From Amphiscolops sp. MND2022 (Eukaryota): a stretch of DNA of 64,000 bases. The number at the start of each line of letters is the position of its first letter. Within the stretch, counting starts at the first letter, position 1. The stretch lies in the NCBI GenBank assembly GCA_964187785.1, contig OZ076409.1, positions 72,790,001-72,854,000 of the forward strand, written 5' to 3'. Under the pieces are notes generated by a model that saw nothing but the letters and a program-made list of their open reading frames with translations, made no database searches and had not been told where the DNA came from. Of the stretch, positions 2,547 to 55,601 are shown piece by piece. The translations under genes and the position numbers were made by a program.

Positions 2547-2943
2547 ATTCAAAAATTTTGAAATTTTTTTTTTCGGTTTTCCGCCCTCCCCCCCGAGGGG
2601 AAAAGACCCCCCAACCAGTAATTTGAGTGAATTCATGTGGAAAGGCCATGTTTAGAGGAGAAAAATCCCGTTTAAATCGTCTTTTTATCTTTATTCAACG
2701 TTGACTTATGACGTTTTGAAGGTGATGTTTGGAAGGTGTGAAGCACGTGAAAAGTAAACGTTATGAGTATTTATCTGATCTAAAAGCCATTGAGATGCAA
2801 TCTGTTTTGCTCAAAACGTAATTCATATCCGTTTGGTAGTCAATCAACACCCTTTGTTGTCATTTGACATCTTTTTTTGTTGATATAAGAAAAAATTTTG
2901 TGTATTTATTAATTTTTTTCTCATCAAATAACTTGAAACAGTT

Positions 2944-2988
2944 GAGTACATTCCATCCCCCCTTCACGGGGGAGATGAGAATGTACTC
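2944..2988. other. ~44-nt hairpin/inverted repeat, type A (GAGTACATTYCATCTCCC-loop-GGGAGATGAGAATGTACTC), preceded by CAGTT. Representative copy
   Basis: One per standard cassette, roughly 245-290 nt before the junction (e.g. 10667-10709, 36476-36518). Variants occur in L2 units at 47442 and 49626. Confidence 0.93.
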
Positions 2989-3387
2989 GCAAAAAGCCCC
3001 AAACTACGGCCCTTACCTTCCTGAGCTACGCAGTATAAAGATTGCATATTGGTTCCGACATTTTGATAGAGTTATATCTTGGTAATCTGTCTGGGTATGC
3101 AGAAAAACCAGCACGTGCTTTTTTATACCAAGTTGCTCACAACGACATTTATTTTATATCAACGCCCCCATATTTATCAACGCCCCCCGTCCGTGGGCAT
3201 GCCGAGGCATGCCCTTCGACGACGTATACCAAGATATGTTCGAGCGCGTTAGCCTAGGTGCCGGTGTTTTTTTACACAATGGGGGAAGTTGCGCGGTTGG
3301 GGAGGGTCCCTGACGCGCTTCCGTGGTATCGGGTCTTTCAACCGATGAAAACGACATAAAAAATTGGGATCTCGTAAACTAGCCATA

Positions 3388-3628
3388 CGATTTGGCTGAA
3401 ATTTGGCACACGTACCCCCCTCGGCACGGTGAAGATGATTCCCTACTGACGTTTTGCTCGCTAAACATTTTTTGTTGACCAAAATAACGGTTTTTGGGGT
3501 AAAATTTTGAACTTTTTTTAAATTTCATCTTATATCTCGCCACGGGTACACGCTAGCGCTTCCAAACCTTTCTGACGAAACCTTGCAAACTGTCTCAGGA
3601 ATGCGGTGTGAAATTTTCAGCTCAATCG
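3388..3628. repeat. Imperfect internal inverted repeat pair (CGATTTGGCTGAAATTTGGCACAC ... GTGTGAAATTTTCAGCTCAATCG). Representative copy
   Basis: 3388-3411 versus the reverse complement of 3606-3628 (CGATTGAGCTGAAAATTTCACAC). The left box is recognisable about 125-155 nt after nearly every junction, including most long units. Confidence 0.8.
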
Positions 3629-6600
3629 GACTCAAACTCGAGGAGATATAGCGTTTTTCCGGAGCGGGGGGGTTTCATTTTTCTAACGGTCCAGCTTATC
3701 TTTGCCATTTTTTCAAAAATGCACTCGCCTAAAGGCCTCCCCTGGCCGGTTTTATTCCCAGCAAAACCATTTGGCCCTAAATACGGAGTTTCAGCGTTCC
3801 AGCATTCCCGGGCGAAAAGTTGTGGGACTTAGAAAATTTCAAAAATTTTCAAAAACTTTTTTTTCCGTTATTTGGGCCCCCAAAGTGGGGGAAAAGACCC
3901 CCCAACCAGTAAAGCAAGTGAATGCATGTGCAAAGCCCTTGTTTAGAGGAGAAAAATGCCGTTTAGAACGTCTTTTTATCTTGGCTCAACGTTGACTTAT
4001 GACGTTTTGAAGGTGATGTTTGGAGGTGTAAAGCACGTGAATAGTAAACGTTATGAGTATTTATCTGATCTGAAAGCCATTGAGATGCAATATGGTTTGC
4101 TCAAAACGTAATTCATTGCAGTTTGGCGATCAATCAACACCCTTTGTTGTCGTTTGACATACTTTTTTGTTGTTATAATAAAAAATTTTGTGTATTTATT
4201 CATTTTTTTCTCATCAAATAACTTGAAACAGTTGAGTACATTCCATCCCCCCCTTCCGGGGGAGATGAGAATGTACTCGCAAAAAGCACCGAACTACGGC
4301 CCTTACCTTCCCGAGCTACGCAGTATAAGGATTACATATTGGTTCCGACATTTTCATAGAGTTAAATCTTGGTAATCTGTCTGGATATGCCGAAAAATCA
4401 GCACGTGCCTTTTAATACCAAGTTGCTCACAACGACAATTATTTTATATCAACGCCCCCATATTTATCAACGCCCCCCGTCCGTGGGCATGCCGAGGCAT
4501 GCCCTTCGACGACCCGCACCAAAATATGCGTTAACGCGGTAGCTGCTAGGTGCCGGGATTTCTATTCGTTCGAGTATGTGGCGCGTGTGGGTAGGGCCCC
4601 TGGCGCGCTCTTTTATTTCGGGTACACCTACTCCAAATTCACGATGTGATTTCGACGATCTCGTAAACTAGCCACACAATTTGGCTGAAATTTGGCACAC
4701 GTACCCCCCTCGGCACGGTGAAGATGATTTCCTACTGACGTTTTTCCCGCTAAACATTTTTTGTTGTTCAAAATAACGGTTTTTGGGGTAAAATTTTCAA
4801 CTTTTTTTAAATTTCATCTTATATCTCGCCACGGGTACACGCTAGCGCTTCCAAACCTTGCTGACGAAAGTTTGCAAACTGTCTCAGGAATGCTGTGTGA
4901 AATTTTCAGCTCAATCGGACTTAAACTCGAGGAGATATAGCGTTTTTCCGAAGCGGGGGGGTTTCATTTTTCTAACGGTCCAGCTTATCTTTGCCATTTT
5001 TTCGAAAATGCACTCGCCTAAAGGCCTCCCCTGGCCGGTTTTATTCCCAGCAAAACCATTTGGCCCTAAATACGGAGTTTCAGCGTTCCAGCATTCCTGG
5101 GCGAAAAGTTGTGGGACTTAGAAAAGTTCAAAAAATTTCAAAAAAATTTTTTTCCGTTTTCCGCCCTCCCCCCGAGGGGAAAAGACCCCCCAACCAGTAA
5201 TTTGAGTGAATTCATGTGGAAAGGCCATGTTTAGAGGAGAAAAATACCGTTTAGATCGTCTTTTTATTTTAACCTGTCGTTGACTTATGTTGTTTTGAAG
5301 GTGATGTTTGGGTGTGTGAAGCTTGTGAAACGGTAATTTATTGTGTTTTTATCTCTTCTAAAAGCATTTGAGCTACACGGTGTGCGACTCAGAACGTGTT
5401 TAATTCTAATTTAGCAATGCATCAACACATTTTTGTGTCTTTTGACTCTGTTTAAAAAAGTTTTTCCGACAAAAATAAAAAAAATTTTATAAATATTCGC
5501 ATTTTTTTTGATCTCATGACTCGAAACAGTTGAGTACATTCCATCTCCCTTCCCGGGGGAGATGAGAATGTACTCTTTAGAGACCAGGTACTACAGTACT
5601 TACCTTCCCCGAGCAACGCCCCATAAAAATTGCGTTTTGATCCAGATATTTTGACATAATTTTATCTTTGTAATTTGACTGGAAATGAAGAAAATGCCGC
5701 ACGTGCTCTTTTATATCAAGTATCTTAACAACGCCATCTCTTTTACGTCAACGCCCCATAGTTCACATCAACGCCCACCGTCCGTGGGCATGCCGAGGCA
5801 TGCCCTTCGACGACGTATGCCCAAGATATACCCCGAGCGCGGTAGCTGCTAGGTGCCGGGATTTTCTATTCGACAAGTTTGCGCGCCTTGGGGAGGGTCC
5901 CTTTGCGCGCTTTAAGATCCAGGTGTTTCCAACTCCTAAACGGGCATGTGATTTCGACGATCTCCTAAACTAGCCATACGATTTGGCTGAAATTTGGCAC
6001 ACGTACCCCCCTCGGCACGGTGAAGATGATTCCCTACTGACGTTTTTCCCGCTAAACATTTTTTGTTGACCAAAATAACGGTTTTTGGGGTAAAATTTTG
6101 AACTTTTTTTAAATTTCATCTTATATCTCGCCACGGGTACACGCTAGCGCTTCCAAATGTTGCTGACGAAAGTTTGCAAACTGTCTCAGGAATGCTGTGT
6201 GAAATTTTCAGCTCAATCGGACTTAAACTCGGGGAGATATAGCGTTTTTCCGGAGCGGGGGGGTTTCATTTTTCTAACGGTCCAGCTTATCTTTGCCATT
6301 TTTTCGAAAATGCACTCGCCTAAAGGCCTCCCCTGGCCGGTTTTATTCCCAGCAAAACCATTTGGCCCTAAATACGGAGTTTCAGCGTTCCAGCATTCCC
6401 GGGCGAAAAGTTGTGGGACTTAGAAAATTTCAAAAATTTTCAAAAAAAAATTTTTCCGTTATTTGGGCCCCCAAAGTGGGGGAAAAGACCCCCCAACCAG
6501 TAAAGCAAGTGAATGCATGTGGAAAGCCCTTAGTTAGATGAGAAAAATGGCGTTTAGAACGTCTTTTTATCTTGGCTCAACGTTGTCTTATGACGTTTTG

Positions 6601-9600
6601 AAGGTGACCGTTAGATACGGAAAATTGATGTTTTGAGTCTTTATCCCATCTGAAAGCCACTGAGATACAACATGTTTTGCTCAAAACGTATTTCATTGCA
6701 GTTTCGCTGTCCATTAACACCCTTTGGTGTCTTTTGACGTATTTTTCTTTTCTATAATATCATTTTTTCTGTGTATTGATTCATTTGTTTTTCATCAAAT
6801 AACTTGAAACAGTTGAGTACATTCCATCTCCCTTCCCTGGGGAGATGAGAATGTACTCGCTAAAGGCCGCGAACTACGGTCTATATCTTCCCCAACACAA
6901 AAGAGATTGAAAATTGTTTCATTTTGTGGAGAAAATTCTTCTTTTTGTACACTGTGACTCGACAAAGTGAACGTTTCTTACCTATTTTGAAACTTCCCTC
7001 ACCAAAAACCATCTCTAACGTCAGCGCCCCCCTACTTGCATCAACGCCCCCCGTCCGTGGGCATGCCGAGGCATGCCCTTCGACGACGTATACCAAGATA
7101 TACCTGGAGCGCGGTAGCCGCTAGGTGCCGGTGTTTTTTTACACAATGGGGGAAGTTGCGCGGTTGGGGAGGGTCCCTGACGCGCTTCCGTGGTATCGGG
7201 TCTTTCAACCGATGAAAACGACATAAAAAATTGGGATCTCGTAAACTAGCCATACGATTTGGCTGAAATTTGGCACACGTACCCCCCTCGGCACGGTGAA
7301 GATGATTCCCTACTGACGTTTTTCCCGCTAAACATTTTTTGTTGACCAAAATAACGGTTTTTGGGGTAAAATTTTCAATTTTTTTTAAATTTTATCTTAT
7401 ATCTCGCCACGGGTTTACGCTAGCGCTTCCAAACCTTGCTGACGAAACCTTGCAAACTGTCTCCGGAATGCTGTGTGAAATTTTCAGCTCAATCGGACTT
7501 AAACTCGAGGAGATATAGCGTTTTTCCGGAGCGGGGGGGTTTCATTTTTCTAACGGTCCAGCTTATCTTTGCCATTTTTTCGAAAATGCACTCGCCTAAA
7601 GGCCTCCCCTGGCCGGTTTTATTCCCAGCAAAACCATTTGGCCCTAAATACGGAGTTTCAGCGTTCCAGCATTCCCGGGCGAAAAGTTGTGGGACTTAGA
7701 AAATTTCAAAAATTTTCAAAAATTTTTTTTTCCGTTATTTGGGCCCCCAAAGTGGGGGAAAAGACCCCCCAACCAGTAAAGCAAGTGAATGCATGTGCAA
7801 AGCCCTTGTTTAGAGGAGAAAAATGCCGTTTAGAACGTCTTTTTATCTTGGCTCAACGTTGACTTATGATGTTTTGAAGGTGATGTTTGGAGGTGTAAAG
7901 CACGTGAATAGTAAACGTTATGAGTATTTATCTGATCTGAAAGCCATTGAGATGCAATATGGTTTGCTCAAAACGTAATTCATGGCAGTTTGGCAATCAA
8001 TCAACACCCTTTAATGTCGTTTGACATACTTTTTTGTTGTTATAATAAAAATTTTGTGTATTTGTTCATTTTTTTCTCATCAAATAACTTGAAACAGTTG
8101 AGTACATTCCATCCCCCCCTTCCGGGGGAGATGAGAATGTACTCGCAAAAAGCAGCGAATTACGGCCCTTACCTTCCCGAGCTACGCACTATAAGAATTA
8201 CACATTGGTTCCGACATTTTCATAGAGTTAAATCTTGGTAATCTGTCTGGATATGCAGAAAAATCAGCACGTGCCTTTTAATACCAAGTTGCTCACAACG
8301 ACAATTATTTTATATCAACGCCCCCCGTCCGTGGGCATGCCGAGGCATGCCCTTCGACGACGTATACCAAGATATGCGTTAACGCGTTAGCCTAGGTGCC
8401 GGTGTTTTTTTACACAATGGGGGAAGTTGCGCGGTTGGGGAGGGTCCCTGACGCGCTCCCGGGATTTCGGATTTTTTAACCTTTACGTACCCATCAAAAA
8501 TTTTGGGATCTCGAAAACTAGCCGTACGATTTGGCTGAAATTTGGCACACGTACCCCCCTCGGCACGGTGAAGATGATTCCCTTCTGACGTTTTGCTCGC
8601 TAAACATTTTTTGTTGACCAAAATAACGGTTTTTGGGGTAAAATTTTCAACTTTCTTTAAATTTCATCTTATATCTCGCCACGGGTACACGCTAGCGCTT
8701 TCAAACCTTGCTGACGAAAGTTTGCAAACTGTCTCAGGAATGCTGTGTGAAATTTTCAGCTCAATCGGACTCAAACTCGAGGAGATATAGCGTTTTTCCG
8801 GAGCGGGGGGGTTTCATTTTTCTAACGGTCCAGCTTATCTTTGCCATTTTTTCGAAAATGTACTCGTCTAAAGGCCTCCCCTGGCCGGTTTTATTCCCAG
8901 CAAAACCATTTGGCCCTAAATACGGAGTTTCAGCGTTCCAGCGTTTCCGGGCGAAAAGTTGTGGGACTTAGAAAATTTCAAAAATTTACAAAAAAAATTT
9001 TTTTCTTATTTGGGCCCCCAAAGTGGGGGAAAAGACCCCCCAACCAGTCAAGCAAGTGAATGCATGTGCAAAGCCCTTGTTTGGACGAGAAAAATGCCGT
9101 TTAGAACGTCTTTTTATCTTGGCTCAACGTTGACTTATGACGTTTTGAAGGTGATGTTTGGAGGTGTAAAGCACGTGAATAGTAAACGTTATGAGTATTT
9201 ATCTGATCTGAAAGCCATTGAGATGCAATATGGTTTGCTCAAAACGTAATTCATGGCAGTTTGGCAATCAATCAACACCCTTTGTTGTCGTTTGACATAC
9301 TTTTTTGGTGTTATAATAAAAAAATTTGTGTATTTATTCATTTTTTTCTCATCAAATAACTTGAAACAGTTGAGTACATTCCATCCCCCTTCACGGGGGA
9401 GATGAGAATGTACTCGCAAAAAGCACCGAACTACAGCCCTTACCTTCCTGAGCTACGCAGTATAAAGATTGCATATTGGTTCCGACATTTTGATAGAGTT
9501 ATATCTTGGTAATCTGTCTGGGTATGCAGAAAAACCAGCACGTGCTTTTTTATACCAAGTTGCTTACAACGACAATTATTTTATATCAACGCCCCCATAT

Positions 9601-12600
9601 TTATCAACGCCCACCGTCCGTGGGCATGCCGAGGCATGCCCTTCGACGACGTATACCAAGATATACATCGAGCGCGTTAGCCTAGGTGGCCGTGTCTTTT
9701 CGACGTGCTTTTGCATTGAGGAGTGGGTAGGGCCCCGCGACGACCTAGAAGAATTGGATGCTCACCGAAACGTGCAGAATTCTACGAGATCTCATAGTTT
9801 GAGCCATACGATTTTTCTGAAATTTGGCATGTGGCCTGGAATTGGTGAGTAGGTAAAACGTGTAGAAGGTAATTTTTCCCAAATTCCACTGTGAGAGGAG
9901 ATATGGGCAAATAACGGACCCAAAAATGGCAAAAATGCACATTTTTCAACTTTGTCAGCCAATATCTCTTTTCCAGGTGCCCGTAGCGTTCCGCACGTGG
10001 ACATCAATATTGCTCAGCGCTGTTGGAGAAGTGCGTGGACAAATTTTGGTTTAAATCGGACTTAAACTTGACGAGAAATTAACGGTTTTTTGGGCGTTTC
10101 CGGGGTAAATTTTTTAACGGTCCAGCTTATCTTTGCCATTTTTTCGAAAATGTACATGCCTAAAGGCCTCCCCCTGGCCGAATTTACTCCCAGCAAACCC
10201 ATTTGGCCCTAAATACGGAGTTTCAGCGTTCCAGCATTCCGGGGCGGAAAGTTGTGGGACTTGGAAAAATTTCAAAATTTTTTCAAAAAATTTTTTTCCC
10301 GTTTTCCGGGCCCCCAATGAAGGGGAACGACCCCCCGACCAGTATTTTGAGTGAATTCATGTGGAACGCCCATGTTTGGAGGAGAAAAATGCCGTTTAGC
10401 ACATCTTTTTATCTTAACTTGACATTGACTTATTTCGTTTTGAATGTGATGTTAGGATATATGAAGCATGTTAAAAGTTGAAGTTTTGAGTCTTTATCTC
10501 ATCGGAAAACCATTGAGATACAAGCAGTTTTGCTAAAAACGATTTTCATTGTAGGTTAGCAGAGTATTAGTACACTTTGATGTCATTTGAGTATTTTTTT
10601 CTTCTATATAATAACTGTTTTTATGTATTTATTCCAATTTATCTCATCTTTTAACATCAAGCAGTTGAGTACATTTCATCTCCCTTTCGGGGGAGATGAG
10701 AATGTACTCGCTAAAAAACTAATGCTTTGGCGCCAATGTTTGGATGGGAAGTTTTCTATGCTTTGAAAAAAGTTATTTTTAATTACTTGATTTTTTAAAA
10801 CAATAATTAACATGAAGTACATTACTTGCTCCTACTACTACCACCATACATCTCTAACGTCAACGCCCCCTGCTTGCATCAACGCCCCATCGTCCGTGGG
10901 CATGCCGAGGCATGCCCTTCGACGACGTATGCCAAATGCCCAATGCCACGCAGTCTTTCCCCGCTAGGTGCCGGGATTTTCTATTCGACAAGTTTGCGCG
11001 CCTTGGGGAGGGTCCCTTTGCGCGCTTTAAGATCCAGGTGTTTCCAACTCCTAAACGGGCATGTGATTTCGACGATCTCCTAAACTAGCCATACGATTTG
11101 GCTGAAATTTGGCACACGTACCCCCCTCGGCACGGTGAAGATGATTTCCTACTGACGTTTTTCCCGCTAAACATTTTTTGTTGACCAAAATAACGGTTTT
11201 TGGGGTAAAATTTTCAACTTTTTTTAAATTTCATCTTATATCTCGCCACGGGTACACGCTAGCGCTTCCAAACCTTGCTGACGAAACCTTGCAAACTGTC
11301 TCAGGAATGCTGTGTGAAATTTTCAGCTCAATCGGACCCAAACTCGAGGAGATATAGCGTTTTTCCGGAGCGGGGGGGTTTCATTTTTCTAACGGTCCAG
11401 CTTATCTTTGCCATTTTTTCGAATATGCACTCGCCTAAAGGCCTCCCCTGGCCGGTTTTATTCCCAACAAAACCATTTGGCCCTAAATACGGAGTTTCAG
11501 CGTTCCAGCATTCCCGGGCGAAAAGTTGTGGGACTTAGAAAAGTTCAAAAATTTTCAAAAAAAAAATTTTCCGTTATTTGGGCCCTCAAAGTGGGGGAAA
11601 AGACCCCCCAACCAGTAAAGCAAGTGAATGCATGTGGAAAGCCCTTGTTTAGACGAGAAAAATGCCGTTTAGAACGTCTTTTTATCTTAACTTGACATTG
11701 ACTTTTGTCGTTTTGAAGGTGACCGTTAGATACGGAAAATTGATGTTTTGAGTATTTATCCCATCTGAAAGCCATTGAGATACAACATGTTTTGCTCAAA
11801 ACGTGTTTCATTGCAGTTTCGCTGTCCATTATCACCCTTTGGTGTCTTTTCACGTAATTTTCGTTTCTATAATAACAATTTTTTTGTGTATTTATTCATT
11901 TTTTTCTCATCAAATAACTTGAAACATTTGAGTACATTCCATCTCCCTTCCCGGGGGAGATGAGAATGTACTCGCTAAAGGCCAGGAACTACGGTCTATA
12001 TCTTCCACAACACAAAAGGGATTGCAAATGGTTTCAGTTTGTCGCAGAAAACTTCTTTTGGCCCTCTGTGACTCGACAAAATGAACGTTTCTTACTTACT
12101 TTGAAACTCAGCATACCACAACTCATCTCTAACGTCAGCGCCCCCCTACTTGCATCAACGCCCACCGTCCGTGGGCATGCCGAGGCATGCCCTTCGACGA
12201 CGTATACCAAGATATACATCGAGCGCGGTAGCCGCTAGGTGCCGGGATTTCTATTCGTTCGAGTATGTGGCGCGTGTGGGTAGGGCCCCTGGCGCGCTCT
12301 TTTATTTCGGGTACACCTACTCCAAATTCACGATGTGATTTCGACGATCTCGTAAACTAGCCATACGATTTGGCTGAAATTTGGCACACGTACCCCCCTC
12401 GGCACGGTGAAGATGATTCCCTACTGACGTTTTGCCCGCTAAACATTTTTTGTTGACCAAAATAACGGTTTTTGGTGGAAAATTTTTGATTTTTTTTAAA
12501 TTTCATCTTATATCTCGCCACGGGTTTACGCTAGCGCTTCAAAACCTTGCTGACGAAAGTTTGCAAACTGTCTAAGGAATGCTGTGTGAAATTTTCAGCT

Positions 12601-14798
12601 CAATCGGACTTAAACTCGAGGAGATATAGCGTTTTTCCGGAGCGGGGGGGTTTCATTTTTCTAACGGTCCAGCTTATCTTTGCCATTTTTTCGAAAATGC
12701 ACTCGCCTAAAGGCCTCCCCTGGCCGGTTTTATTCCCAGCAAAACCATTTGGCCCTAAATACGGAGTTTCAGCGTTCCAGCATTCCCGGGCGAAAAGTTG
12801 TGGGACTTAGAAAATTTCAAAAATTTTCAAAAATTTTTTTTCCGTTATTTGGGCCCCCAAAGTGGGGGAAAAGACCCCCCAACCAGTAAAGCAAGTGAAT
12901 GCATGTGCAAAGCCCTTGTTTAGAGGAGAAAAATGCCGTTTAGAACGTCTTTTTATCTTGGCTCAACGTTGACTTATGACGTTTTGAAGGTGATGTTTGG
13001 AGGTGTAAATCACGTGAATAGTAAACGTTATGAGTATTTATCTGATCTGAAAGCCATTGAGATGCAATATGGTTTGCTCAAAACGTAATTCATGGCAGTT
13101 TGGCAATCAATCAACACCCTTTGTTGTCGTTTGACATACTTTTTTGTTGTTATAATAGAAATTTTGTGTATTTGTTCATTTTTTTCTCATCAAATAACTT
13201 GAAACAGTTGAGTACATTCCATCCCCCCTTCCGGGGGAGATGAGAATGTACTCGCAAAAAGCAGCGAATTACGGCCCTTACCTTCCCGAGCTACGCAGTA
13301 TAAGGATTACATATTGGTTCCGACATTTTCATAGAGTTAAATCTTGGTAATCTGTCTGGATATGCAGAAAAATCAGCACGTGCCTTTTAATACCAAGTTG
13401 CTCACAACGACAATTATTTTATATCAACGCCCCCATATTTATCAACGCCCCCCGTCCGTGGGCATGCCGAGGCATGCCCTTCGACGACGTATACCAAGAT
13501 ATACATCGAGCGCGTTAGCCTAGGTGCCGGTGTATTTTTACACAATGGGGGATGTTGCGCGTGTGGGGAGGGTCCCTGACGCGCTTCCGTGGTTTCGGGT
13601 CTTCTAACCTATGATAGCGTGACACCTGACTTCGATCTCGTAAACTAGCCGTACGATTTGGCTGAAATTTGGCACACGTACCCCCCTCGGCACGGTGAAG
13701 ATGATTTCCTACTGACGTTTTTCCCGCTAAACATTTTTTGTTGACCAAAATAACGGTTTTTGGGGTAAAATTTTGAATTTTTTTTATATTTCATCTTATA
13801 TCTCGCCTCGGATACACGCTAGCGCTTCCAAACCTTGCTGACGAAAGCTTGCAAACTGTCTCAGGAATGCTGTGTGAAATTTTCAGCTCAATCGGACTTA
13901 AACTCGGGGAGATATAGCGTTTTTTCGGAGCGGGGGGGTTTCATTTTTCTAACGGTCCAGCTTATCTTTGCCATTTTTTCGAAAATGCACTCGCCTAAAG
14001 GCCTCCCCTGGCCGGTTTTATTCCCAACAAAACCATTTGGCCCTAAATACGGAGTTTCAGCGTTCCAGCATTCCCGGGCGAAAAGTTGTGGGACTTAGAA
14101 AAGTTCAAAAATTTTCAAAAAAAATTTTTTCCGTTATTTGGGCCCTCAAAGTGGGGGAAAAGACCCCCCAACCAGTAAAGCAAGTGAATGCATGTGGAAA
14201 GCCCTTGTTTAGACGAGAAAAATGCCGTTTAGAACGTCTTTTTATCTTAACTTGACATTGACTTTTATGGTTTTGAAGGTGACCGTTAGATACGGAAAAT
14301 TGATGTTTTGAGTATTTATCCCATCTGAAAGCCATTGAGATACAACATGTTTTGCTCAAAACGTGTTTCATTGCAGTTTCGCTGTCCAATATCACCCTTT
14401 GGTGTCTTTTCACGTAATTTTCGTTTCTATAATAACAATTTTTTTGTGTATTTATTCATTTTTTTCTCATCAAATAACTTGAAACAGTTGAGTACATTCC
14501 ATCTCCCTTCCCGGGGGAGATGAGAATGTACTCGCTAAAGGTCAGGAACTACGGTCTATATCTTCCACAACACAAAAGGGATTGCAAATGGTTTCAGTTT
14601 GTCGCAGAAAACTTCTTTTTGCCCTCTGTGACTCGACAAAATGAACGTTTCTTACTTACTTTGAAACTCAGCATACCACAACTCATCTCTAACGTCAGCG
14701 CCCCCCTACTTGCATCAACGCCCACCGTCCGTGGGCATGCCGAGGCATGCCCTTCGACGACGTATACCAAGATATACCTGGAGCGCGGTAGCTGCTAG

Positions 14799-42700: not shown

Positions 42701-45700
42701 AAAGCCATTGAGATACAAGGTGTAGCACTCAGAACGTGTTTAATTCTAAATTAGCAATGCATCAACACTTTTTGTGTCTTTGGACTCTGTTAAAAAATTT
42801 TTTCCGACTAAAATCAAAAATTATTTATAATTATTCACATTTTTTTCTGATCTCATGACTCGAAACAGTTGAGTACATTCCATCTCCCTTCCCGGGGGAG
42901 ATGAGAATGTACTCTCTAAAGACCAGGTACTACAGTACTTACCTTCCCCGAGCAACGCCCCATAAAAATTGCGTTTTGATCATTCTATTTTGACATAATT
43001 CTATCTTTGTAATTTGACTGGAAATGAAGAAAATCCGCACGTGCTCTTTTATATCAAGTATCTTAACAACGCCATCTCTTTAACGTCAACGCCCCATAGT
43101 TCACATCAACGCCCACCGTCCGTGGGCATGCCGAGGCATGCCCTTCGACGACGTATGCCAAAGATATTCCCGAGCGCGTTAGCCTAGGTGCCGGGATTTC
43201 TATTCGATAAGGAATTTTGCGCGGTTGGGTAGGGCCCCGTGAGCGCGCCAGGGGATAGTGTTAGAACAACAAGGATTTGGGCATCAGTTGGGAGCGATTT
43301 TCTAAACTATCCGTACGATTTGGCTGAAATTTGGCATGAAGCTTCCTTGGAACATTCTAAGAACAAATCCCTACTGGCGTTTTGCTGGGAAAAATCAAAA
43401 AGTTGGTCAAAAATGCGATTTTCCGACAAAATTTTTGACTTTTTTTTCTTTTTCAACTCATATCTCGCCACAGGGTTACGCTAGCGCTTCGCAACCTATG
43501 ATCGTGTTTTGTAGGGCGTTGTCTGTAGAACACGTATGCCAAATTTGGTGGCGATCGGACTTGAACTCAGCGAGTTAGAGCGATTTTTTAGGTGAATTTT
43601 TTGACATTTTTTGCATTTGCCGATTTATCTCTGCCGTTTTTGCCCAGATTTTTTTTTGAGACCCTCTCCTAAAGACCTCCCCTGGCCGGTTTACCTCCCA
43701 GCAAAACCATTTGGCCCTAAATACGAAGTTTCAGCGTTCTAGCAATCCCGGGCGAAAAGTTATGGGACTTAGAAAATTTTTTCGAAAACGCAAAATGTGT
43801 AAAGTCAACTTCAGGCCTCCCAAAGTCAAGGAACTTCCACACAACTAGTATTGCAAGTGAATGCATGTGGAAAGTACTCTAATAGACGAGGATAATGCGC
43901 TATAGAACGACTCTGTAGCTTAACCTGACGTTGACTTATGGTGTTTTGAATGTGGGCTTGCTAAGGGGTCTGAAAATCAAAAATTGAAAATGGAAACTAA
44001 GTCTTATTGAAAACTCACCGGAATCCTTGCAATCGGCCCCAGGGCGTGCTCAATTGTAGTTTTCCATTCTGTCAACACCACTCAAGGTCTTTTGACTTAT
44101 GTTGAAAAAATTGACACCGTATTATGTATCATTCATTCGATAGCACGAAACAGTTGAGTACATTCCATCTCCCTTTCGGGGGAGATGAGAATGTACTCGC
44201 TAAAGTCCAGGTACTACAGCCCATTTTTCTTTTGATGCAACGCTCTTTATGCTAGTGCGCACAAGTATTATTCTTTTAACAGAATTTTCTTTTTAACTGC
44301 AGTTTGACTTGGACTTGACATAAACTAAACGTTTTTGTCCCTACAACATACACATGACTAACGTCAACGCCCCATCCTTGCATCAACGCCCACCGTCCGT
44401 GGGCATGCCGAGGCATGCCCTTCGACGACGTATGCCCTCACAATCGCGGTAGCCGCTAGGTGCCGGGATTTCTATTCGATAAAGTATTTTGCGCGGTTGG
44501 GTAGGGCCCCGTGAGCGCGCCAGGGGATTGTGTTAGAACAACCGGAAATTCGGCATACGATTTTGGCGATTTTCTAAACTATCCATACGATTTGGCTCAA
44601 ATTTGGCATACGGGTTCCTGAGACAGATATAAGAACTAATTCCTACTGGCATTTTGCCCGGAAAATTTTTTTTGTTGCCCAAAATTGAAATTTTCGGCAA
44701 AAAAATGCGATTTTTTTTGAAAAATTTTTTTTGAGAGGCCATATCTTTTTTCAGGGTGTCCGGAGCGGGACGCGTTAAACTGATTATAAACTCTACGGTT
44801 CATGGGCTTTACGGAGAACCTAAGCTCGTTTCGCTCGGACAAATAGTCTTGGAGATATAACGGGATTTTTCGGGAATTTTTTGAAAATTTTTCTAACGGT
44901 CCAGCTTATCTTTGCCATTTTTTCAAAAATGCACTCGCCTAAAGGCCTCCCCTGGCCGGTTTTATTCCCAGCAAAACCATTTGGCCCTAAATACGGAGTT
45001 TCAGCGTTCCAGCATTCCCGGGCGAAAAGTTGTGGGACTTAGAAAAATTTCAAAATTTTTCAAAAAATTTTTTTCCGTTTTCCGTCCTCCCCCCCGAGGG
45101 GAAAAGACCCCCCAACCAGTAATTTGAGTGAATTCATGTGGAAAGGCCATGTTTAGAGGAGAAAAATGCCGTTTAGATCGTCTTTTTATTTTAACCTGTC
45201 GTTGACTTATGTTGTTTTGAAGGTGATGTTTGGATGTGTGAAGCATGTGAAAAGGTAATTTATTGTGTCTTTAGCTCTTCTAAAAGCCATTGAGATACAA
45301 GGTGTAGCACTCAGAACGTGTTTAATTCTAAATTAGCAATGCATCAACACTTTTTGTGTCTTTGGACTCTGTTAAAAAATTTTTTCCGACTAAAATCAAA
45401 AATTATTTATAATTATTCACATTTTTTTCTGATCTCATGACTCGAAACAGTTGAGTACATTCCATCTCCCTTCCCGGGGGAGATGAGAATGTACTCTCTA
45501 AAGACCAGGTACTACAGTACTTACCTTCCCCGAGCAACGCCCCATAAAAATTGCGTTTTGATCATTCTATTTTGACATAATTCTATCTTTGTAATTTGAC
45601 TGGAAATGAAGAAAATCCGCACGTGCTCTTTTATATCAAGTATCTTAACAACGCCATCTCTTTAACGTCAACGCCCCATAGTTCACATCAACGCCCACCG

Positions 45701-45769
45701 TCCGTGGGCATGCCGAGGCATGCCCTTCGACGACGTATGCCAAAGATATTCCCGAGCGCGTTAGCCTAG

Positions 45770-47962
45770 GTGGAGGTTATTTTATAATAATTAATGTGTT
45801 TTTTTCCGGAGTTTGTGGCTTTGGAAAAAACAAAAGGCGAGAAATCGGGCACTCCGGGCTGAACCGTATACACTCAAATTTCGCCCATTTTTTATACGAT
45901 CTCGAAACTCAGCCGTACGATTTGGCTGAAAATTTGCATGCGGCTACAAATTGAGATTCTAAGAACTATTTCCTGGTGACATTTTTTTGAAATTTTTGTG
46001 TACGTTTCCCCCCCGCCCCCTAAAGGGGCCAATTTTCCCCACTTTTGCACTTATGAGTCAAATTCTCAAAACTGGTGGATCTGAGCGTATTCCCGCCGGG
46101 GACAACTTTTAACAAGCGCTCCTCAGTAGACCTTCATGACTTTTTACTTTGGTGGTACGTTCACCCCCCGAGGAGGAAATTGCGTTTTTGTGACTTCCGG
46201 TCGAGGCTTTTTTCACCCAAAAATTAGATTTAAGCCAGTTTTGAGCAGGAAGGAGTGGATTTAAAGTGCCTGTACCCTGCTAAAAATTTGTTGGGCTTGT
46301 AGCGATATATCTCATACCAAGTCTGGTTTTCACCCCCAAACCCCCCTTGAGACCAAAATTCACCCAAAGTTTTTTACCTCTGTTTGTAGTTTTTTTACCG
46401 AATATCGTCATTTCCATGGGTAAGGAGTTGAATTAGGGGCTCCTAATAGGGTACCAATGTTCAAGTACACTTGCAGTGCAACTGATTGACCCTTTTTGGG
46501 CCTCTCCTGTGTTCGGCAAGGACCGGAAGCGGTGTAACCCCCCCTTTTTTGACGTTTGTTGACCTTGAGACTCGCGCTTAGATGACGTTTATGTCGCGCG
46601 AATCCTACAAACAAGTATTAGGATGACATGCTAGCCAACTAGAGAGCAGTAAGGGAAACAATATTATACCGGAAGTAACCCCCCGTGACCGGAAGTTGTC
46701 ATTTTTGACCGCAAATGGTCCAAAACCTAGCGTAAAAGCAGTTTTTCATTGCTTTTAAAGTCAACTTCTTACATTTTTCAATCTGCGCGAGCTTTTCTTC
46801 AGGTTCGTTTTTGTTGCCAGTGCACAGCAACGAATATACAACTGTAAAATTTTCGCTATAAAATTGTCGGAGAGAGAAATAACGGATTATTTGGACTTTT
46901 TTTCAAAAATATTAGTCTACATCTGTCATTTTTACCCAATGTTACTCAACAGTAGAACCACAGGTTTTATTCTCTGCCCAAAAATATGCCTAACAAATTC
47001 ACCTGTCCCTTTGGTTGCAGTTTGAGCATTCTAGCTTTACCTGGTCACAAGTTAGGGGACTTGAAATAGTTTCAAAAATTTTTCCGAAAAATTTTTCTAA
47101 ACGTCATGTCTCCCAAAGTTAAGAAACTTCCGCACAACTAGGATTACAAGTGAATGCACGTGGTAAGACCTATAATTGGAGAGAAAAATTCAGTTTGGAA
47201 CGTCTCTTTATCGTAACGTGACGTTAAGAGAAGTTGCTTTGAATGCGAGCTTGATGAGACGTCGAGAAGTAACAGTGTGTAAATGGAACCTATGTCTCGA
47301 CAAATACTCATCGGAATACATGAGATGAACCCCAATTACCCTCAATTTCAGTTGCCTAGTACAACAACGTCTTCCAAGGACCCTTTAATCTTTTTGATAA
47401 GCGTTGAAGTCATCATTAGCTTGAGTTCGCAAGAAACAATTGAGTACATTCTCATCTCTCCCCATCGGGTGAGATGAGAATGTTTTTGCTAAAAGCCAGG
47501 TACTACGGCCCAATTTTGTTTTATTGCGACGCATTCTGTGCTTTAGCACATAGATACTTTTATTCCGTCTCACTTTTTGTATACACTCTGATTTGTTGTT
47601 ATAAATTTCTCGTCATTACTTTACATAAACTAATTACCATAAAACTTTAACGTCAAAGCCACATTCATTTAGACGCCCACCATTCCGTAGGTATGCCGAG
47701 GTATGCCATTCAAAGATGTATGTCAAACGCAAATGCGATAAAATTAGTGCTGAAAATCGGAAACAGTGACAAACAGTTTTGACTTTTTGATATTTGTTAG
47801 GTTTTCATATGGAACTTACACATCACTGACAATTCAAAACATTCCAGCTGACGCTCACATACAAACATCAACGCCCACCGTCTGTGGGCATGCCGAGGCA
47901 TGCCCTTCGACGACGTATAGCAAATTCCTTTAATATCTACACCCAATTGCGGTAGCAGCTAG
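45770..47962 (+). repeat. Long cassette type L2 (2193 bp)
   Basis: Head GTGGAGGTTATT, CCGGAAG-rich module, degenerate core, type A hairpin and two palindrome blocks. Diverged paralogue of the next unit. Confidence 0.9.
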
Positions 47963-50142
47963 GTGGAGGTTATTATATATCAATTAAAGTGTTTTTTTCC
48001 GGAGTTTGTGGCTTTGGAAAAAACAAAAGGCGAAAAATTGGGCACTCCAGGCTGAACCTAAAAACACCCTAAAATTGGCCCGATTTTTTTACGATCTCGA
48101 AACCCAGCCGTACGATTTGGCTGAAAATTTGCATGTGGCTCCTAATCAATGAGTAATGAAAAAGTGTAGGAGTGACTTTTCCTGAAAAAATTGTTTTTGT
48201 TGCACTTTTTGCGCAATTTTTGACCGATTGTTGCGTTTTTTATGTCACTTTTGACTTTTCAGGCCAAAAACTCATAGATGCTTTGATCCTAGCGCATCAA
48301 GTGTTTCGACCAAAAAGTTGCAGCATGTTCTTTTACGTATGTTGGGAAATTTTGGTTGCCATCGTATCACCCCCCACTGAGATAGAGGGTAACTTCCGGT
48401 GGATTTTACCACCCTAAAAACGAGGACCTCCTAAATTTCAGCATGAAGCGGTAGTTTTAGCGTTCTCATACCCTGCTGAAGTTTTGTTGGGCATATTGAG
48501 ATATACCTGATACCATGTGTTCAGTTCACCCCCCATCACCCCCTGGACCGGAAATGAACTTTTTTGTGCACTTTCATACCGGAAGTCTCCAATTAAGCCG
48601 TTAAGCAGTCCTTGTACGAGCAACTACCAGGACATCAAAATTGAAGTACCACCTGAGGTCAACTTAATGACTACGTGCTGTCCAGTCCGGGGGTCCGCTA
48701 TGACCGGAAATGGGGTCAAAACCCCCCTTTTTGGTTGTTTTTTACCAATTCGACTAGTGTTTGGTCCACATTCAAGTCACATAAGTCAATTGAACAAGTG
48801 TGAGAATAAACTGTATGTTCACTGCGTAGATGTAACTGACACTGACAGATACCGGAAGTAACCCCCCGTAACCGGAAGTTGTCATTTTTGACCGGAAATG
48901 GTCCAAAATGTAGCGTAAAATCAGTTTTTCACTGCTTTTTGAAGTCAACTCAATACATTTTCAATCTTGGCGATCTTGTATTCAGGTTCGTTTTTGTTAC
49001 CTGTGCACTTTGCAACAAATATACATCTGTAAAGTTTTCTCCATAATATCGTCGGATAGAGAAATAACGTGTTTTTGGGACTTTTTTCAAAAATTTTAGA
49101 CTATATCTGTCTTTTTTACCCAAAGTTATTCAACAGTACAACCACAGTGGTTAGACTCTGTCCAAATATATGTCAAACAAAACTATTTGGCCCATTGGCC
49201 TCAGTTTGAGCGTTCCAGCTTTGCGTGGTCATAAGCTATGGAACTTGAAAAAAAGTCAAACTTTTTTCAAAAAAAAATTTCTCACATTCATGTCTCCCAA
49301 AGTGAAGAGACTTCCACACAACTAGGATTGCAAGTGGATGCCTGTGGCAAGCCGTATAATTAAAGAGAAAAATGCCGCAAAGAACCTCTTTATATCGTAA
49401 CTTGACGTTAACGTATGGTAATTTGAATGAGAGCTTGATAAGAGGTCGAGAAGTCAAAGTGTGTAAATGGAACGTATGTCTCGTCGAAAACTCATAAGAA
49501 TACATGCTGTGAACACCAATTATCATCAATTGCAGTTGTCTAGTGTAACAACGTCTTTCAGGGACATTTTAACCATTTTCATAAGTGCCAGATGTTTTTT
49601 TAAATTCAATTAGCGAGAAACACTTGAGTACATTCTCATCTCTCCCCAGCGGGTGAGATGAGAATGTTCTTGCTAAAAGCCAGGTACTACGGCCCACTAT
49701 TGTTTTAATGCGACGCATTCTGTGCTGAAGCACATAGATATTTTTATTTCGTCTGACTTCTCGTATACACTCTGACTTGTTATTGTAAATTTCTCGTCAT
49801 TACTTTACATAAACTTACTACGATACAACATTGACGTCAACTCCACATACATTTAGACGCCCACCTTTCCGTAGGTATGCCGAGGCATGCCTTTCGACGA
49901 CGTGTGTCAAAGCGCAAACGCGATAAAAAGTGCTGAAATTCTGAAACAGTGACAAACAATTTTGATTATTTGACATATGGTAGGTTTTTATATGAAACGT
50001 ACACATCACTGACATTTCACAACATTCCAGCTGACGCCCACATACCAATGTCAACGCCCACCGTCCGTGGGCATGCCGAGGCATGCCCTTCGACGACGTA
50101 TGCCAATTTTGTATATCTACACCCAATTGCGGTAGCAGCTAG
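47963..50142 (+). repeat. Long cassette type L2' (2180 bp)
   Basis: Colinear with 45770-47962 but clearly diverged. Confidence 0.9.
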
Positions 50143-51413
50143 GTGGCCGGAAATTTTTTTTTCATCAAAATCTTTGCCATTGGGGGAGGGGCCCCGGATG
50201 GCCAGTAGTACGGGATAGCTTCCTACCAAATCCAGATGGAAAAAACGTGATTTCGGAAACTAGCCGTCAGAATTTGCTCAAATTTTGCATACGGCTTCCT
50301 ATGACAATCCTAAGAACTAATCCCTACTGGCATTTTGCCCAAAAAACGCAAAAAGTTGGTCAAAATCTTAGTTTTTTGGTCAAAAAATTGCGTTTTTTCG
50401 AAAAAAATTTTTTTCAGAGACAATTACTCGTAACTGGTTCACCCAGCGCAAAAACGCCTAGCTGATTTATTGTTGGGCACTTCATGAGGAGTGCGTATAC
50501 AAATTTTCGTCCAAATCGAATAAAAGTTGATTGAGAAATAACTGAAAATTTGAGGCATTTTTTTGGAAATTTTTGAAATCCCAGTCTATCTCTGCCGTTT
50601 TTTGCCCAGAATTTTTTCCAGACACTCTCCTAAAGACCTCCCCTGGCCGGTTTACCTCCCAGCAAAACCATTTGGCCCTAAATACGGAGTTTCAGCATTC
50701 CAGCAAACCCCGGGTAAAAGATAAATGACTTAGAATTTTTTCGAAAAATTTTCAAAAATTTTTTTTTCAAATTCAGGCCTCCTAAAGTAAAGAAACTTCC
50801 ACACAACTAGGATTGCAAGTGATAGCATGTGGAAAGTGCTTGAATAGACGAGAAAAATGAGCTATTATACGACTCTGTAGCTTAACCTGACGTTGACTTA
50901 TGATAATTTTAGTGTGAGCTTCGTTTGTGCTTAAAAAATTTAAAAAACCTAAAAGTCTTTTTAAGGTAATCAGGATACGTCCAATCAACCCCAGAGCTGT
51001 TATATTGCCGTTGTGTAGTAAAGCAACACCATTTAGAGTGTTTTGACCCATTTTGACAAGTTTTGATACAGTCTTGTTCATCCAATAGCTTAAAACAGTT
51101 GAGTACATTCCATCTCCCCCCTTGTGGGGGAGATGAGAATGTACTCGCTAAAAGTCAGGTACTATAGCGCCCATTTTGTTTTATTCGACGCTAGTGATGC
51201 TATTGCAGACGAATACAATAGTTTTGTCAAATCATGTTTGACATGATGAATCTTACTTTACCTTTAGTTTACGTTTACCTACTACTACAACATCGCATCC
51301 CTGACGTCAACGCCACATACTCGCACCAACGCCCACCGTCCGTGGGCATGCCGAGGCATGCCCTTCGACGACGTATGCCAAATAGCGCCACAGGGCGCAA
51401 ACTTGTCCGCTAG

Positions 51414-54213
51414 GTGGCGGGGGGCTGTCCCCAATAGAATATAGTGAGGTAGGGTAGGGTTCCCTACCGAACATTCAGTACTGAAAGACTCTTGTAGTAT
51501 GAAAATTTTTCGATGTTTTGAGACCGATTTCGGATTCCACCCGTCAGAAGTTTATGATTTTTTGGCCCCCACCCAGATTTTGGGCACTGATCGCCCCCCA
51601 CCAGGTTCCATACCCGTGGTTTCGTTGTGACGGGTACACGAGCGACCGTTAGGGGTCAATCAGGGGGTAAAATTTATAAAAGTGTGAATAACTTTTCCCC
51701 CCGTCGTTTTAGCAGGTCCGGTCACTAGTAAAGGTTTGTTGGGCATCATGCAGTGGGTACGGGGGGCCAAACAAAAATTTTCTATCATGCACCGTTACGG
51801 ACTTGGCCCCCCGCCCAAACCGCTATTTTACCGGAAATTGCACTTTTTGAACGGGAAGGAGTCGTCTGAGCGCGGAGTCGTTTGGTAATGTTTTGTAGAG
51901 CATCTGAAGACGTGGTGGGGGACATGTAGTTTGCCGACCCCAGTTTACCCCTCGGACGGGAAATGACCGTTATGTTAGTTTTAAAATTGCCCCCCGTCAA
52001 CTTTAACCGCTATTTCTGGTGTGAAGGAGTCGGAACAGCGTGTCGGGTGCTATATATCAAAAGTAGCTTTAAACAAGGACCTATCAGAAACATGTGGTTT
52101 GGGACCCTTTGAACGGACCCGTTAGCCGGAAATAGGGTGACCGCCTCCTTTTTTGGTGTTAAAACCGTAAAACGGGCATTAAAGTGAAATTATCTCGTGA
52201 ACGCGTGGAGCAATCGTGTCCATCACTCCTACAAGGTTTCATACCCATGACATGGTGTCTTCAGGGGGGCAAACAGATCAGCGCTATCTATCACCGTTAC
52301 GGACTTTGCCCCCCAGCCTAACCGCTATATTACCGGAAACTGCCCTTTTTGACCGGGAAGGAGTCGTCTGAGAGTGGAGTCGTTAAGTAATGTTTTGTAG
52401 AGCATCTAGAGACGTGTTGGGGGACATGTAGTTTGCCGACCCCTGTTTACCCCTCGGACGGGAAATGACCGTTATGTTAGTTTTAAAATTGCCCCCCGTC
52501 AACTTTAACCGCTATTTCTGGTGTGAAGGAGTCGGAATAGCGTGTCGGGTGCTACATATCAAAAGTAGCTTTAAACAAGGACCTATCAGAAACATGTGGT
52601 TTGGGACCCTTGGAACGGACCCGTTAGCCGGAAATAGGGTGACCGCCTCCTTTTTCTGCGGTTAAAATTGTAAAACGGGCATTGAAGTGGAATTATCTTG
52701 AAAACGCGTGGAGCTATAGTGTCCTTCACTACTACAAGGTTTCATACTCAAGATACGGTGCCTTCAGGGGGGAAAACAGATTACCGCTATATATCACCGT
52801 TACGGACTTGGCCCCCAGCCTAACCGCTATGTTACCGGAAATGTCATTTTTTGAGCCAAAAGGGTTAGTCCCAGCGTGGGAACGTCAGGTAACTTTATGT
52901 AGAACTCAATGAGACGAGTTGGGGGATATGGTTTCAGTCACCCCCCGTTGACCCGTTAGACCGGAAACGACCGTTATGTAGTGAAAAATGTAATTTTTAT
53001 ACTTTTTGAAGGCCATTTAGGGCAGGAAGTATCGGTAATATGTCTTTGGACAGTATACAATGAAAGTTTTGGTGTGAAACAAGCAATCTGAAATATCCGT
53101 TATTATGATTCGGAAGTCACACTAACAGCGAAAATGACCTTTATGTAGTGAAAATTTTTTTCACATTTTTTTTTTGCTTTCGATAGGTCCTTCAAGCCAA
53201 GAAGTAGCTGTATTAGGTCTTTGGCCACTTTATGATGATTGTGGTGTTGTGAGATGACCGTACGAACTTGACCTTTATAATGCCCCTGAAGTTGCTGCGG
53301 CACGAGAAATTTCAGAAAGTTTGTCTTTTCTGTGTTTTGTTGGAATAAACATTTAATTTCATTAAACCAATGTGCATTCAGGGTGTTTAGAAAGCTTCAA
53401 GAAAAGAATTTAATAGGAAACATGGCGGTGAGAAATAACAAATTGCCACGTAAATCCAACCCCCGTTGGGGAATAAATGTAATAAATTGTTTTTGGAAGT
53501 GCCAATCGACGTGTATTTGCGGATCATAGCCACGGTATTGTCTATTCGTGTTTCTTTTTGAAGACTTTGAACATTTTCACTTTATCAGCTTGAGGTTTTA
53601 ACTCTATATGCTTAATAACCGTTACAATATGATAGCCCTCAAGTTGACCTTGTGTCAACTTGAAAGGGCTATCCTTTCACAACTGCGCAGCAACAGTGTG
53701 ATTGAGTGATTTAGTTATTATCCAAGGCCAATTTGAACTTCAACAAGATTTTAACCACAATATTTAAAACTATTCATATGATTCTTTCAAAAGGGTAAAT
53801 ATTTAACTAATATTTGACAAAAAAACTCCAACCTTTAATTTGTGGACCGAATAGTAGGAAAACCATGTTTCTTAACGTTGTTGGATGAAATTCAAAATGA
53901 TGCTTTTAAAAGAATAACAATTCTTGACACTATATATTTTTTCTATTTTCCAATAAACTATTTTTCCAAAAGTCTATTTTTCCAATAAACATTGTTGATT
54001 GATGCCCATTCATAGTGACTGGAAAGTTTTACCAACTGTGGTGTTTTTTTTTAATCAGAGGTGAAACCGCTCCCTACCGTCGCATAATGTAATTCAAGCC
54101 GACGCCCACATGCCAACATCAACGCCCACCGTCCGTAGGCATGCCGAGGCATGCCTTTCGACGACGTATGCCAAATCACGCCCCTGCGAGGTCACTAAAG
54201 CGGTAGCGGCTAG
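51414..54213 (+). repeat. Long cassette type L3 (2800 bp), an L1 relative with an internal ~502-bp tandem duplication
   Basis: ACCGTTACGGACTT recurs at 51791, 52293 and 52796. The duplicated block is homologous to L1 positions ~374-849. Type B hairpin at 53631. Confidence 0.92.
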
Positions 54214-55601
54214 GTGGTTGGGGCGGTCCCCAGAACGCACAAGGAGGCGCGGGGAGGGTCCTGCGCCGACGTAGAATAATTTCATATAATACTAGTATCC
54301 TACATGGGTGTTTTAGAAGCGATTTTGGAATCTAACCGTAGGATTTGGATAATTTTTTGCATGCGGCCATAACTCGAAATTCTAAGAACTTTTTCCTACT
54401 GTCATTTTCCCCGCAAAATGTTTTTTGTTGACTTATGGCCGAAAAACCGGAAATAACGTCCTTTTTAGACGTTATATCCGAAGTGTCGTCATAACTTTTT
54501 TCCAGGGCATGCTAGCGTTCTCGTTCACTTTTACACTTAGTTGCAGCATCTCAAAATACAACTGGTGGAAAATTTTGATTGCATTCGGATCACCCCCCAC
54601 CGAGATAGAAGGGTTCCCCCCTCCAGTTTTACCCCCCAAATTTGCGAAAAAGCCAATTTTGAGCATGAAGCCGAGGATTTAGCGTACCCGCACCCTCCTG
54701 GTGTTTTGTTGTACGTATTGGGGTCAATCGGACGACATGTGTGGTTTTCACCCCCAACCCCCCCTGGGACCGGAAATGACAATTTTTTGTGTTTTTTGGC
54801 AGAAATTAGCCTTTTTCATTAGTTGGCAGTCGTTTTAGGGACTCCTAGCAGGATATCGAAATTGAAATACAACCTGATCACAACCCAGTGACAACATGTT
54901 GGCCATTTGGAGGTACCATCATGACCGGAAGTGGGGTCAACCCCCCTTTTTGTGACCGCTTTTTGACCTTGTGAACCAAAATGCCAACAACTTGAGGCCT
55001 AATGACGCATTCAAATCTGTAAAAAGATAGAATGTTAGACAACCAAAGTCCCGGAAGATCTTTAGCATATACCGGCAGTTACCCCCCATGACCGGAAGTT
55101 ACCCAATGTGACCGGAAATGGTCCAAAACTTAATGTAAAGTTGAATTTTTCACTATTTCAAGACCACTTGATTGAACATTTTCATTCCCAAAACTAGCGT
55201 ACTGGCTTGTTTTGCTGAATTTATGGAAATTGATGAGCTCTATCACCCCCGATTGCCTTCGAAGTTGACCTTGCGTCAACTTTGGAGGCTATCGATACTG
55301 AAAATGAACAACAAAGTACATTGTTGCTCTCGGTTTTTTCCCGTTGTTTTTCCTCAAACATTCTTGAGACATATACATGGCCGTTAGTTGAAATCAATAT
55401 TTAGCCCATGTTATAGCTGGAGCAGCGAAGCGTTACACAGACTAGTGTGGTTTTGAAATTACATTATTTAAATTAACAACTGACCGTCTTAGTCAACTCC
55501 ACACATTCATACCAACGCCCACCGTCTGTGGGCATGCCGAGGCATGCCCTTCGACGACGTATGACGAATCCACTCCAACGACACCCGCAGTCCTCAGCTA
55601 G
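54214..55601 (+). repeat. Cassette type L4 (1388 bp): L2-like CCGGAAG module plus type B hairpin
   Basis: Shares TCACCCCCCAC(C/T)GAGATAGA, GCATGAAGC and ACCGG(A/C)AGT(A/T)ACCCCCC motifs with L2 (48367-48900). The hairpin at 55251 is of the L1/L3 type. Confidence 0.85.

Follow-up and report, generated by a model that had tools for sequence, protein, structure and literature searches.

The stretch of DNA analysed here, hereafter the window (G000:C1:72,790,001-72,854,000, i.e. 64 kb of the 1.07-Gb assembly of Amphiscolops sp. MND2022), holds a head-to-tail array of Helitron-like elements, of which the first nucleotides (the 'heads') can fold into hairpins. These heads are most probably the left ends, recognised by a transposase, of non-autonomous Helitron-like transposons, and their fold would act as a single-stranded DNA (ssDNA) signal before nicking at CTAG|GTG. 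The reading of the fold as an ssDNA signal is supported by the ends of the elements, their partner genes, covariation, a bias towards the + strand, the consensus of the host target and the point at which families switch. That the junctions are also actively targeted by incoming elements seems to us plausible, with the balance about even. Altogether, 45 CTRG|GTG junctions were counted in the window, which contains no open reading frame (ORF) above 136 aa. The features on which the argument relies are as follows.

1970..63299, + strand: array of 44 complete non-autonomous Helitron-like elements, head-to-tail, several interspersed families, 1.27-2.8 kb
3258..4549, + strand: complete element of the commonest family, GTG (5') to CTAG (3'), ends set by empty-site paralogs
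3254..3261, + strand: junction CTAG|GTGC, tail of one element to head of the next, in the form of the preferred host target
3264..3277, + strand: hairpin 1, 4 bp, a weak and variable first stem
3288..3320, + strand: hairpin 2, conserved G-rich loop, outer stem of the Watson-Crick type
14799..14858, + strand: head with hairpin 1 GAAA/TTTC and hairpin 2 GCCAT/ATGGC; a similar head opens a 17-kb element with a 2,603-aa ORF of the RepHel type (Rep fused to helicase)
17354..17414, + strand: head of a 2-kb family ending in CTGG; its hairpin 2 combines tandem G.A/A.G with a variant loop
27026..27090, + strand: head identical to that of a 12-kb element (L027) with a 2,350-aa RepHel ORF
45770..45832, + strand: atypical head whose hairpin 2 is long and A/T-rich, includes several G.T pairs and lacks the standard loop motif
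51444..51472, + strand: hairpin 2 of the 51414 head, 7-bp inner stem, tandem G.A/A.G and two further Watson-Crick pairs
54243..54270, + strand: hairpin 2 in the 54214 head, a G-C pair closing the tandem G.A/A.G

Structure of the heads

The initial annotation of this DNA had described two hairpins in each head, with stems that keep their pairing while changing their sequence. Stems were indeed found at the places given: all 11 stretches considered (eight coordinate pairs from that annotation and three that we placed in the 14799, 17354 and 51414 heads) showed 4-8 terminal Watson-Crick pairs. For statistics, we used 44 head types, of which the window supplied 11 and the rest of the genome 33 (42 types clustered at <80% identity, plus two window types added by hand); kinship among heads is only partly corrected for in the fold, arm-swap and covariation values given here.

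For hairpin 2, the pairing far exceeds what chance would give. With RNA parameters, cognate arms folded at -17.0 kcal/mol versus -13.4 kcal/mol for arms swapped among the 44 types (z -9.5); with DNA parameters, the values were -8.2 versus -5.8 kcal/mol (z -9.0, 44 types), and none of 20,000 permutations reached the cognate value. Three control regions located downstream gave z values of -0.6 to +2.4 and no arm complementarity. Covariation was measured on a gapless alignment made from sequence only, which comprised 42 of the 44 types and two metagenome heads (the 17354 and 45770 types, without the usual loop motif, were excluded). On this alignment hairpin 2 scored 0.325 versus 0.189 +/- 0.017 after shuffling, no shuffle out of 500 being as high, and register 0 outscored all six slides. 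In 39 of 44 types, the first base of the loop motif falls at +38 to +43.

A second regularity, absent from the initial annotation, concerns the outer stem of hairpin 2, which contains tandem G.A/A.G in 26 of 44 types and otherwise mostly Watson-Crick pairs. GA is present on both arms or on neither in 40 types out of 44 (Fisher p 8e-8, relatedness being ignored), and a rough tree of the element bodies gives 10 GA changes per arm and 13 for the pair, hence at least 7 coincident changes.

The claim of covariation did not extend with the same force to hairpin 1, which we find to be real but weak. Its stem reaches at least 4 pairs in 27 of 44 types, with a mean of 3.70 versus 3.09 in shuffled sequences (Wilcoxon p 2e-5), the best p value for a single head being 0.02. 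In the commonest, CCGGGATTT heads, where this hairpin had already been noted as weak, it is absent.

The four inner pairs of hairpin 2 include 25 cases of G.T and a single A.C, and the + strand is more stable than the opposite strand in 33 of 44 head rows. Because of this excess of G.T over A.C and of the greater stability of the + strand, we consider the + strand to be the folded one. The + strand is also the strand of the transposase ORF, in agreement with the proposal that the fold is an ssDNA end signal of the kind used by HUH enzymes. A covariance model built on the heads recovered 40 of the 45 heads of the window, all on the + strand; among 13 metagenome and 13 HLE1/HLE2 loci (two known groups of Helitron-like elements, considered below) it matched only L238 and L233, both of which belong to its training set.

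Autonomous partners of the arrays

A search of the genome with the PF14214 profile returned, among the matches listed, many frames of 2,350-2,600 aa inside arrays and on the array strand. We identified 11 units of 12-17 kb that possess an array-type head and a CTRG tail and encode ORFs of 2,350-2,603 aa. PF14214 (Helitron_like_N) and PF05970 (PIF1) exceed the cut-off in L023, L027, L029, L034 and L194; the PF14214 match covers the distal half of the domain only, and the Rep motifs, including the two tyrosines, align. Since these long units share heads and tails with the units of the window, the latter are best described as non-autonomous Helitron-like elements and their heads as left ends. Thus, the suggestion of an HUH end signal gained support: each head coincides exactly with the 5' end of an element, and the long members of these elements encode Rep-HUH and Pif1.

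The C-terminus of these proteins displays a weak match to a GIY-YIG-like domain, above the cut-off in P0008 and P0035 and below it in L034; our guess would be that it resolves branched intermediates. In most autonomous elements the transposase is followed by a second ORF of 280-390 aa with no Pfam match (L024:2726-3691, L026, L032 and L040, with homologues in L247, L235 and L241). Its structural model (predicted local distance difference test, pLDDT, 73) is nearest to the oligonucleotide-binding (OB) folds of RPA and CST (Foldseek E 1e-4, template modelling score, TM, ~0.25), and the product is predicted from this model to be an RPA/CST-like ssDNA-binding protein.

Transposases of this type have 328 relatives at E <1e-30 among clusters at 50% identity, which makes an oddity of one genome unlikely. 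In 2 of 24 metagenome loci (L238 and L233), a head with hairpin 2 was reached upstream of a gene for a RepHel protein 27-33% identical to those of the arrays; most of the other metagenome loci are too short to reach the end of the element.

Element ends and host target

All 235 units of our library start with GTGG or GTGC, and they end with CTAG (226) or CTGG (9); library units were cut by a GTG...CTRG definition, from which these end counts follow. The ends were set by empty-site paralogs of two full-length insertions into host repeats (L156 versus L154 and L157 versus L187): in both, the flanks join exactly, with nothing added or lost. Accordingly, the element is GTG...CTAG and produces no target-site duplication. 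By eye, the host site of L156 (its flanks and L154) looks like a tRNA-derived repeat.

Seventeen heads lie directly on DNA matching no library element (L077, with an ambiguous start, was excluded from the flank count). Sixteen of these start with GTG and one with TTG. Their left flanks are CTAG in seven cases and one mismatch away from it in six, for a background of 0.0019 CTAG per base in host DNA; the last base of the flank is G in 13 of 17 and A in 1 of 17. On the right side, 50 distinct flanks (those with G at base 3 having been screened out) show G (22), A (21), T (6) or C (1) at base 1, and T at base 2 in 48 cases. The host target thereby resembles CTAG^RT, which is the form of the element's own junction. 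An interpretation of CTAG as a 4-bp target duplication was ruled out: CTAG is constant at the right end but not in the left flanks, and empty sites contain it once. At three loci with short or truncated copies (L115/L164, L111 and L113), the right flank is repeated upstream after CTAG or CTTG, a duplication that the two full-length insertions do not show.

Three features complete the description of the units.

3195..3214, + strand: 20-nt palindrome in the tail of the preceding element (1970-3257); some families are without it
3368..3411, + strand: third conserved block, at about +105 to +150, common to most families and to metagenome contig L238
35496..36766, + strand: element without the tail palindrome, ending in CTGG and followed by a normal head at 36767

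The palindrome, a likely 3' terminator hairpin, lies 40-60 nt upstream of the 3' end in 203 of 235 library units and is absent from the 32 others, all of which stand before a head. In one 2.2-kb family a degenerate extra palindrome (49887-50142) occurs 196 nt upstream of the true one. A short hairpin near the 3' end was seen in some tail types and not in others. The +105 to +150 block is possibly a transposase binding site, and may resemble the core motifs of Helentron-associated repeats. The idea that the CTAG found in this block acts as a guide by pairing with the junction was rejected, as the tetramer varies among families without matching their ends.

Growth of the arrays

For one tail motif, the next bases are GTG in 1,264 cases and another flank (with a non-G third base) in 48, in a genome with about 870,000 CTAG[AGT]T sites (extrapolated from 260 kb). 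Three stretches, with 158 units in total, were compared for their ends: the last 32 nt of a unit correlate with its own head (adjusted mutual information 0.65) and not with the next one (0.15), and one head type is paired with one tail type in 22 of 22 units. As the tail follows its own head, families switch at the junction itself and not in the shared palindrome block upstream. Neighbours of near-identical units are themselves near-identical in 4 of 70 comparisons at 99% and in 16 of 206 at 98% (backgrounds 0.3% and 0.9%), and two dispersed sites (L168 and L169) are mini-arrays of different families. The junction excess, the switch point and the differing neighbours fit a one-by-one insertion of elements at junctions.

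Few array starts were reached; there, an intact head follows CTAG or CTGG, and some such flanks are tails of further families. Many dispersed copies (L150-L165, L184 and L189) are orphan tails truncated in 5', about 50-520 nt long, with an exact CTAG right junction, which suggests that the 3' end is joined first or independently. Elsewhere (L083/L084/L136; G000:C6, 53.13-53.15 Mb), two tandem elements have the same ~50 nt of host DNA on their left, which looks as though it had been copied along with the element.

Alternative explanations

Several observations weigh against the proposal that folded heads are transposase signals and junctions landing sites. Regarding the fold, 75-nt whole-head folding is unremarkable (RNA z < -2 for 2 out of 29 distinct heads), the arm ranked as best partner is the cognate one for only 6 rows out of 44, and MAFFT followed by RNAalifold returned only four inner pairs of hairpin 2 and no hairpin 1, a loss of the outer stem and of hairpin 1 that we attribute to register shifts in the MAFFT alignment. 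The fold is not universal either, as the 45770 family does not have the loop motif and the distant pair L230/L231 shares sequence from CTRG|GT with no hairpin 2. Covariation and G.T bias suit an RNA fold equally. The OB-fold assignment is modest given its pLDDT, E and TM values, and in 4 of the 17 cases the left flank differs from CTAG at three positions. As for junctions, same-family neighbours are in excess (33 of 158 versus 11 expected), neighbour sharing is above background, and the dispersed mixed mini-arrays could have been moved as blocks by read-through. The excess of same-family adjacency and of neighbour sharing indicates that local amplification also contributes.

These last points are shared with the alternative that survives best, which we hold to be possible, if the less probable course: the heads are transposon ends, yet the arrays grow without targeting, through rolling-circle concatemers, terminator read-through and unequal exchange, the hairpin being an origin only. 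This scenario competes with the targeting step alone and not with the identity of the heads. Besides the two excesses, it would account for one-family runs such as the six consecutive units at 19358-27025, and tandem Helitron arrays and end bypass are known (PMC5876387, PMC4778049). However, homologous exchange would be expected within the ~50-nt shared block, whereas the switch between families occurs downstream of it, at CTRG|GTG; more than 90% of the neighbour comparisons of near-identical units differ; and units with unrelated bodies, from 1.1 to 17 kb long, follow one another in alternation.

A structured RNA starting at each head, transcribed just downstream of the palindrome, was the second option of the initial annotation and appears improbable. 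The + strand fold with its G.T pairs, several of which occur in the stem of the 45770 family, would be compatible with such a transcript, G.U wobbles and tandem G.A being then read as RNA motifs; tandem G.A pairs do occur in RNA too. Nevertheless, the fold begins exactly at the end of a mobile element and travels with it onto unrelated host flanks, as in the 17 heads set directly on non-element DNA. In addition, the palindrome proposed to precede the transcript belongs to the tail of the previous element and is absent before many heads. A role in RNA is less likely because heads travel with the element, often without an upstream palindrome. The check proposed against known structured RNAs returned no Rfam 15 match at gathering score in the 64 kb; two sub-threshold snoRNA matches fall elsewhere in units, outside the heads.

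Finally, it is very improbable that the stems are a neutral by-product of template switching, in which one arm would keep being copied onto the other while the DNA is replicated as a single strand. The elements would indeed pass through ssDNA, and several families have perfect stems of differing sequence. Such copying, however, would erase the tandem G.A/A.G, yet 26 of 44 types retain it at a single position and the two arms change together; moreover, neither the loop nor its spacing from the end varies, and the downstream controls are without arm complementarity.

Proposed mechanism and significance

Returning to the ssDNA signal, we infer from the protein domains and the exact junctions that the elements move by rolling-circle transposition via ssDNA and circles. 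The reference here is Helraiser: its left end is indispensable, undergoes nicking and remains bound to a tyrosine, circles with exact tail-to-head joins are formed (PMC4778049, PMC5876387), and the + strand alone is transposed (PMC6431247); DNA hairpins are also commonly bound by HUH enzymes (PMC10288648). By analogy with Helraiser, the transposase would nick the + strand at the junction and keep the GTG 5' end on its tyrosine, the Pif1 domain would peel off the + strand, with the OB-fold protein as its likely coat, and a circle would be freed by a second cut, made at the CTRG of the element itself. Hairpin 2, at a fixed distance from the nick, would be the recognition signal on the peeled + strand DNA. 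A chromosomal junction would then constitute an intact origin, at which the enzyme would nick as well and exchange strands with an incoming element. Each such insertion would add one unit between an old tail and an old head, both sites being regenerated, and new arrays would arise from rare insertions at host sites similar to CTAG^RT.

The signal read by a Helitron transposase at its essential left end has so far been poorly defined, and Helitrons are thought to insert almost randomly in AT dinucleotides. Here, 44 naturally diverged ends define this signal as a shape, consisting of a stem, tandem G.A pairs, a fixed loop and a fixed distance from the nick. Since this shape is defined and intact autonomous partners are at hand, the signal is directly testable. 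If junction targeting is true, it would offer transposons a new route to megabase arrays and a new means of keeping away from genes, and would supply a candidate ssDNA system for the site-specific integration of cargo of 1-17 kb. If the junctions are landing sites, the array would be a self-made safe harbour in a eukaryote, similar to an integron cassette array.

Comparison with known systems

Helitron-like elements (HLEs) are compared here using the definitions of HLE1 and HLE2 in PMC11417382. As in all HLEs, autonomous copies here encode a Rep HUH fused to a Pif1 helicase and leave no target-site duplication.

With HLE1 (Helraiser), the array-type elements share a 3' CTRR end, as seen in the CTAG and CTGG ends of the library (PMC11417382, PMC4778049, PMC5876387), non-autonomous copies with common ends, head-to-tail junctions and an RPA-like gene downstream of RepHel. 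They differ from HLE1 in their 5' end (GTG(G/C) versus TC), their target (similar to CTAG^RT versus A^T), their structured 5' end, their C-terminal GIY-YIG-like domain, their match to the distal half only of PF14214 and their separate Rep clade. The 3' hairpin of HLE1 is located about 10-12 nt before the 3' end (PMC11417382). In our Rep tree, the 11 array-type rows group together (98/95), to the exclusion of two HLE1-type rows of the same genome. In the helicase tree, the array-type clade (100/100) is compared with DUF6570-bearing HLE2 only, with no HLE1 rows. Both trees are small, with long branches and no published (Repbase) references among their rows.

Some HLE2 (Helitron2, Helentron, HINE/DINE-1, FoHeli) have a 5' hairpin (PMC11417382, PMC5148889), and an OTU domain, known in HLE2, is present in some relatives here (P0018). 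Unlike HLE2, the array-type elements have no terminal inverted repeats of 12-17 nt (between the first and last 150 nt, the longest exact inverted match is 5-9 nt in 34 of 34 families), no T^T insertion and no DUF6570 (absent from seven of seven array-type proteins, present in 8 of 11 others); no AP endonuclease match was obtained in array-type proteins. They form a clade separate from HLE2 in both the Rep and helicase trees.

The Helitrons of Paramecium, a third HLE clade, resemble the elements described here in being outside HLE1 and HLE2, target-specific and provided with compensatory changes in terminal stem-loops (PMC13085455). By description, however, they end in CCAA, insert in telomeric repeats and have their covarying stem at the right end, and GIY-YIG, present here, is unmentioned in the accessible part of that text.

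Megabase-scale or repeated head-to-tail Helitron copies were also reported in Hydractinia subtelomeres (10.1101/2024.11.21.624632), and repeated head-to-tail copies in plant centromeres (cited via PMC5148889); Papilio arrays and a centromere atlas provide other cases of transposon arrays. The Hydractinia and plant arrays consist of one subfamily or of truncated copies amplified locally, whereas dozens of families and intact autonomous elements are interleaved here with exact joins. IS91 and IS200/IS605 likewise use an HUH transposase, an oriented insertion beside a short target and terminal hairpins as signals (PMC10288648), but are bacterial and without a fused helicase; no guide-like sequence was found in the array-type elements.

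According to PMC11417382, 19 genomes contain elements left unclassified and one HLE2 family has captured a GIY-YIG; the supplements of that paper may include the array-type clade. In the literature searched, which lay outside Repbase, Dfam and subscription journals, we found no description of arrays in which different families are joined at their junctions and a hairpin of the left end covaries. It is conceivable, at roughly even probability, that these elements represent a widespread and undescribed Helitron branch, equipped with a fused GIY-YIG nuclease and with an ssDNA-binding gene of its own, in which a folded 5' end serves as both origin and landing site and dozens of families build megabase mixed arrays unit by unit.

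Genomic setting of the window

Among the matches listed, the array region extends from about 70.5 to 76.5 Mb on G000:C1, on one strand, and other contigs carry smaller arrays. This ~6-Mb single-strand array, which contains many intact transposase ORFs, two of them near 73.78 Mb and 74.33 Mb, is possibly centromeric or pericentromeric. At 72.44 Mb (L097), a tail meets an inverted head, which represents a local strand switch within the large array.

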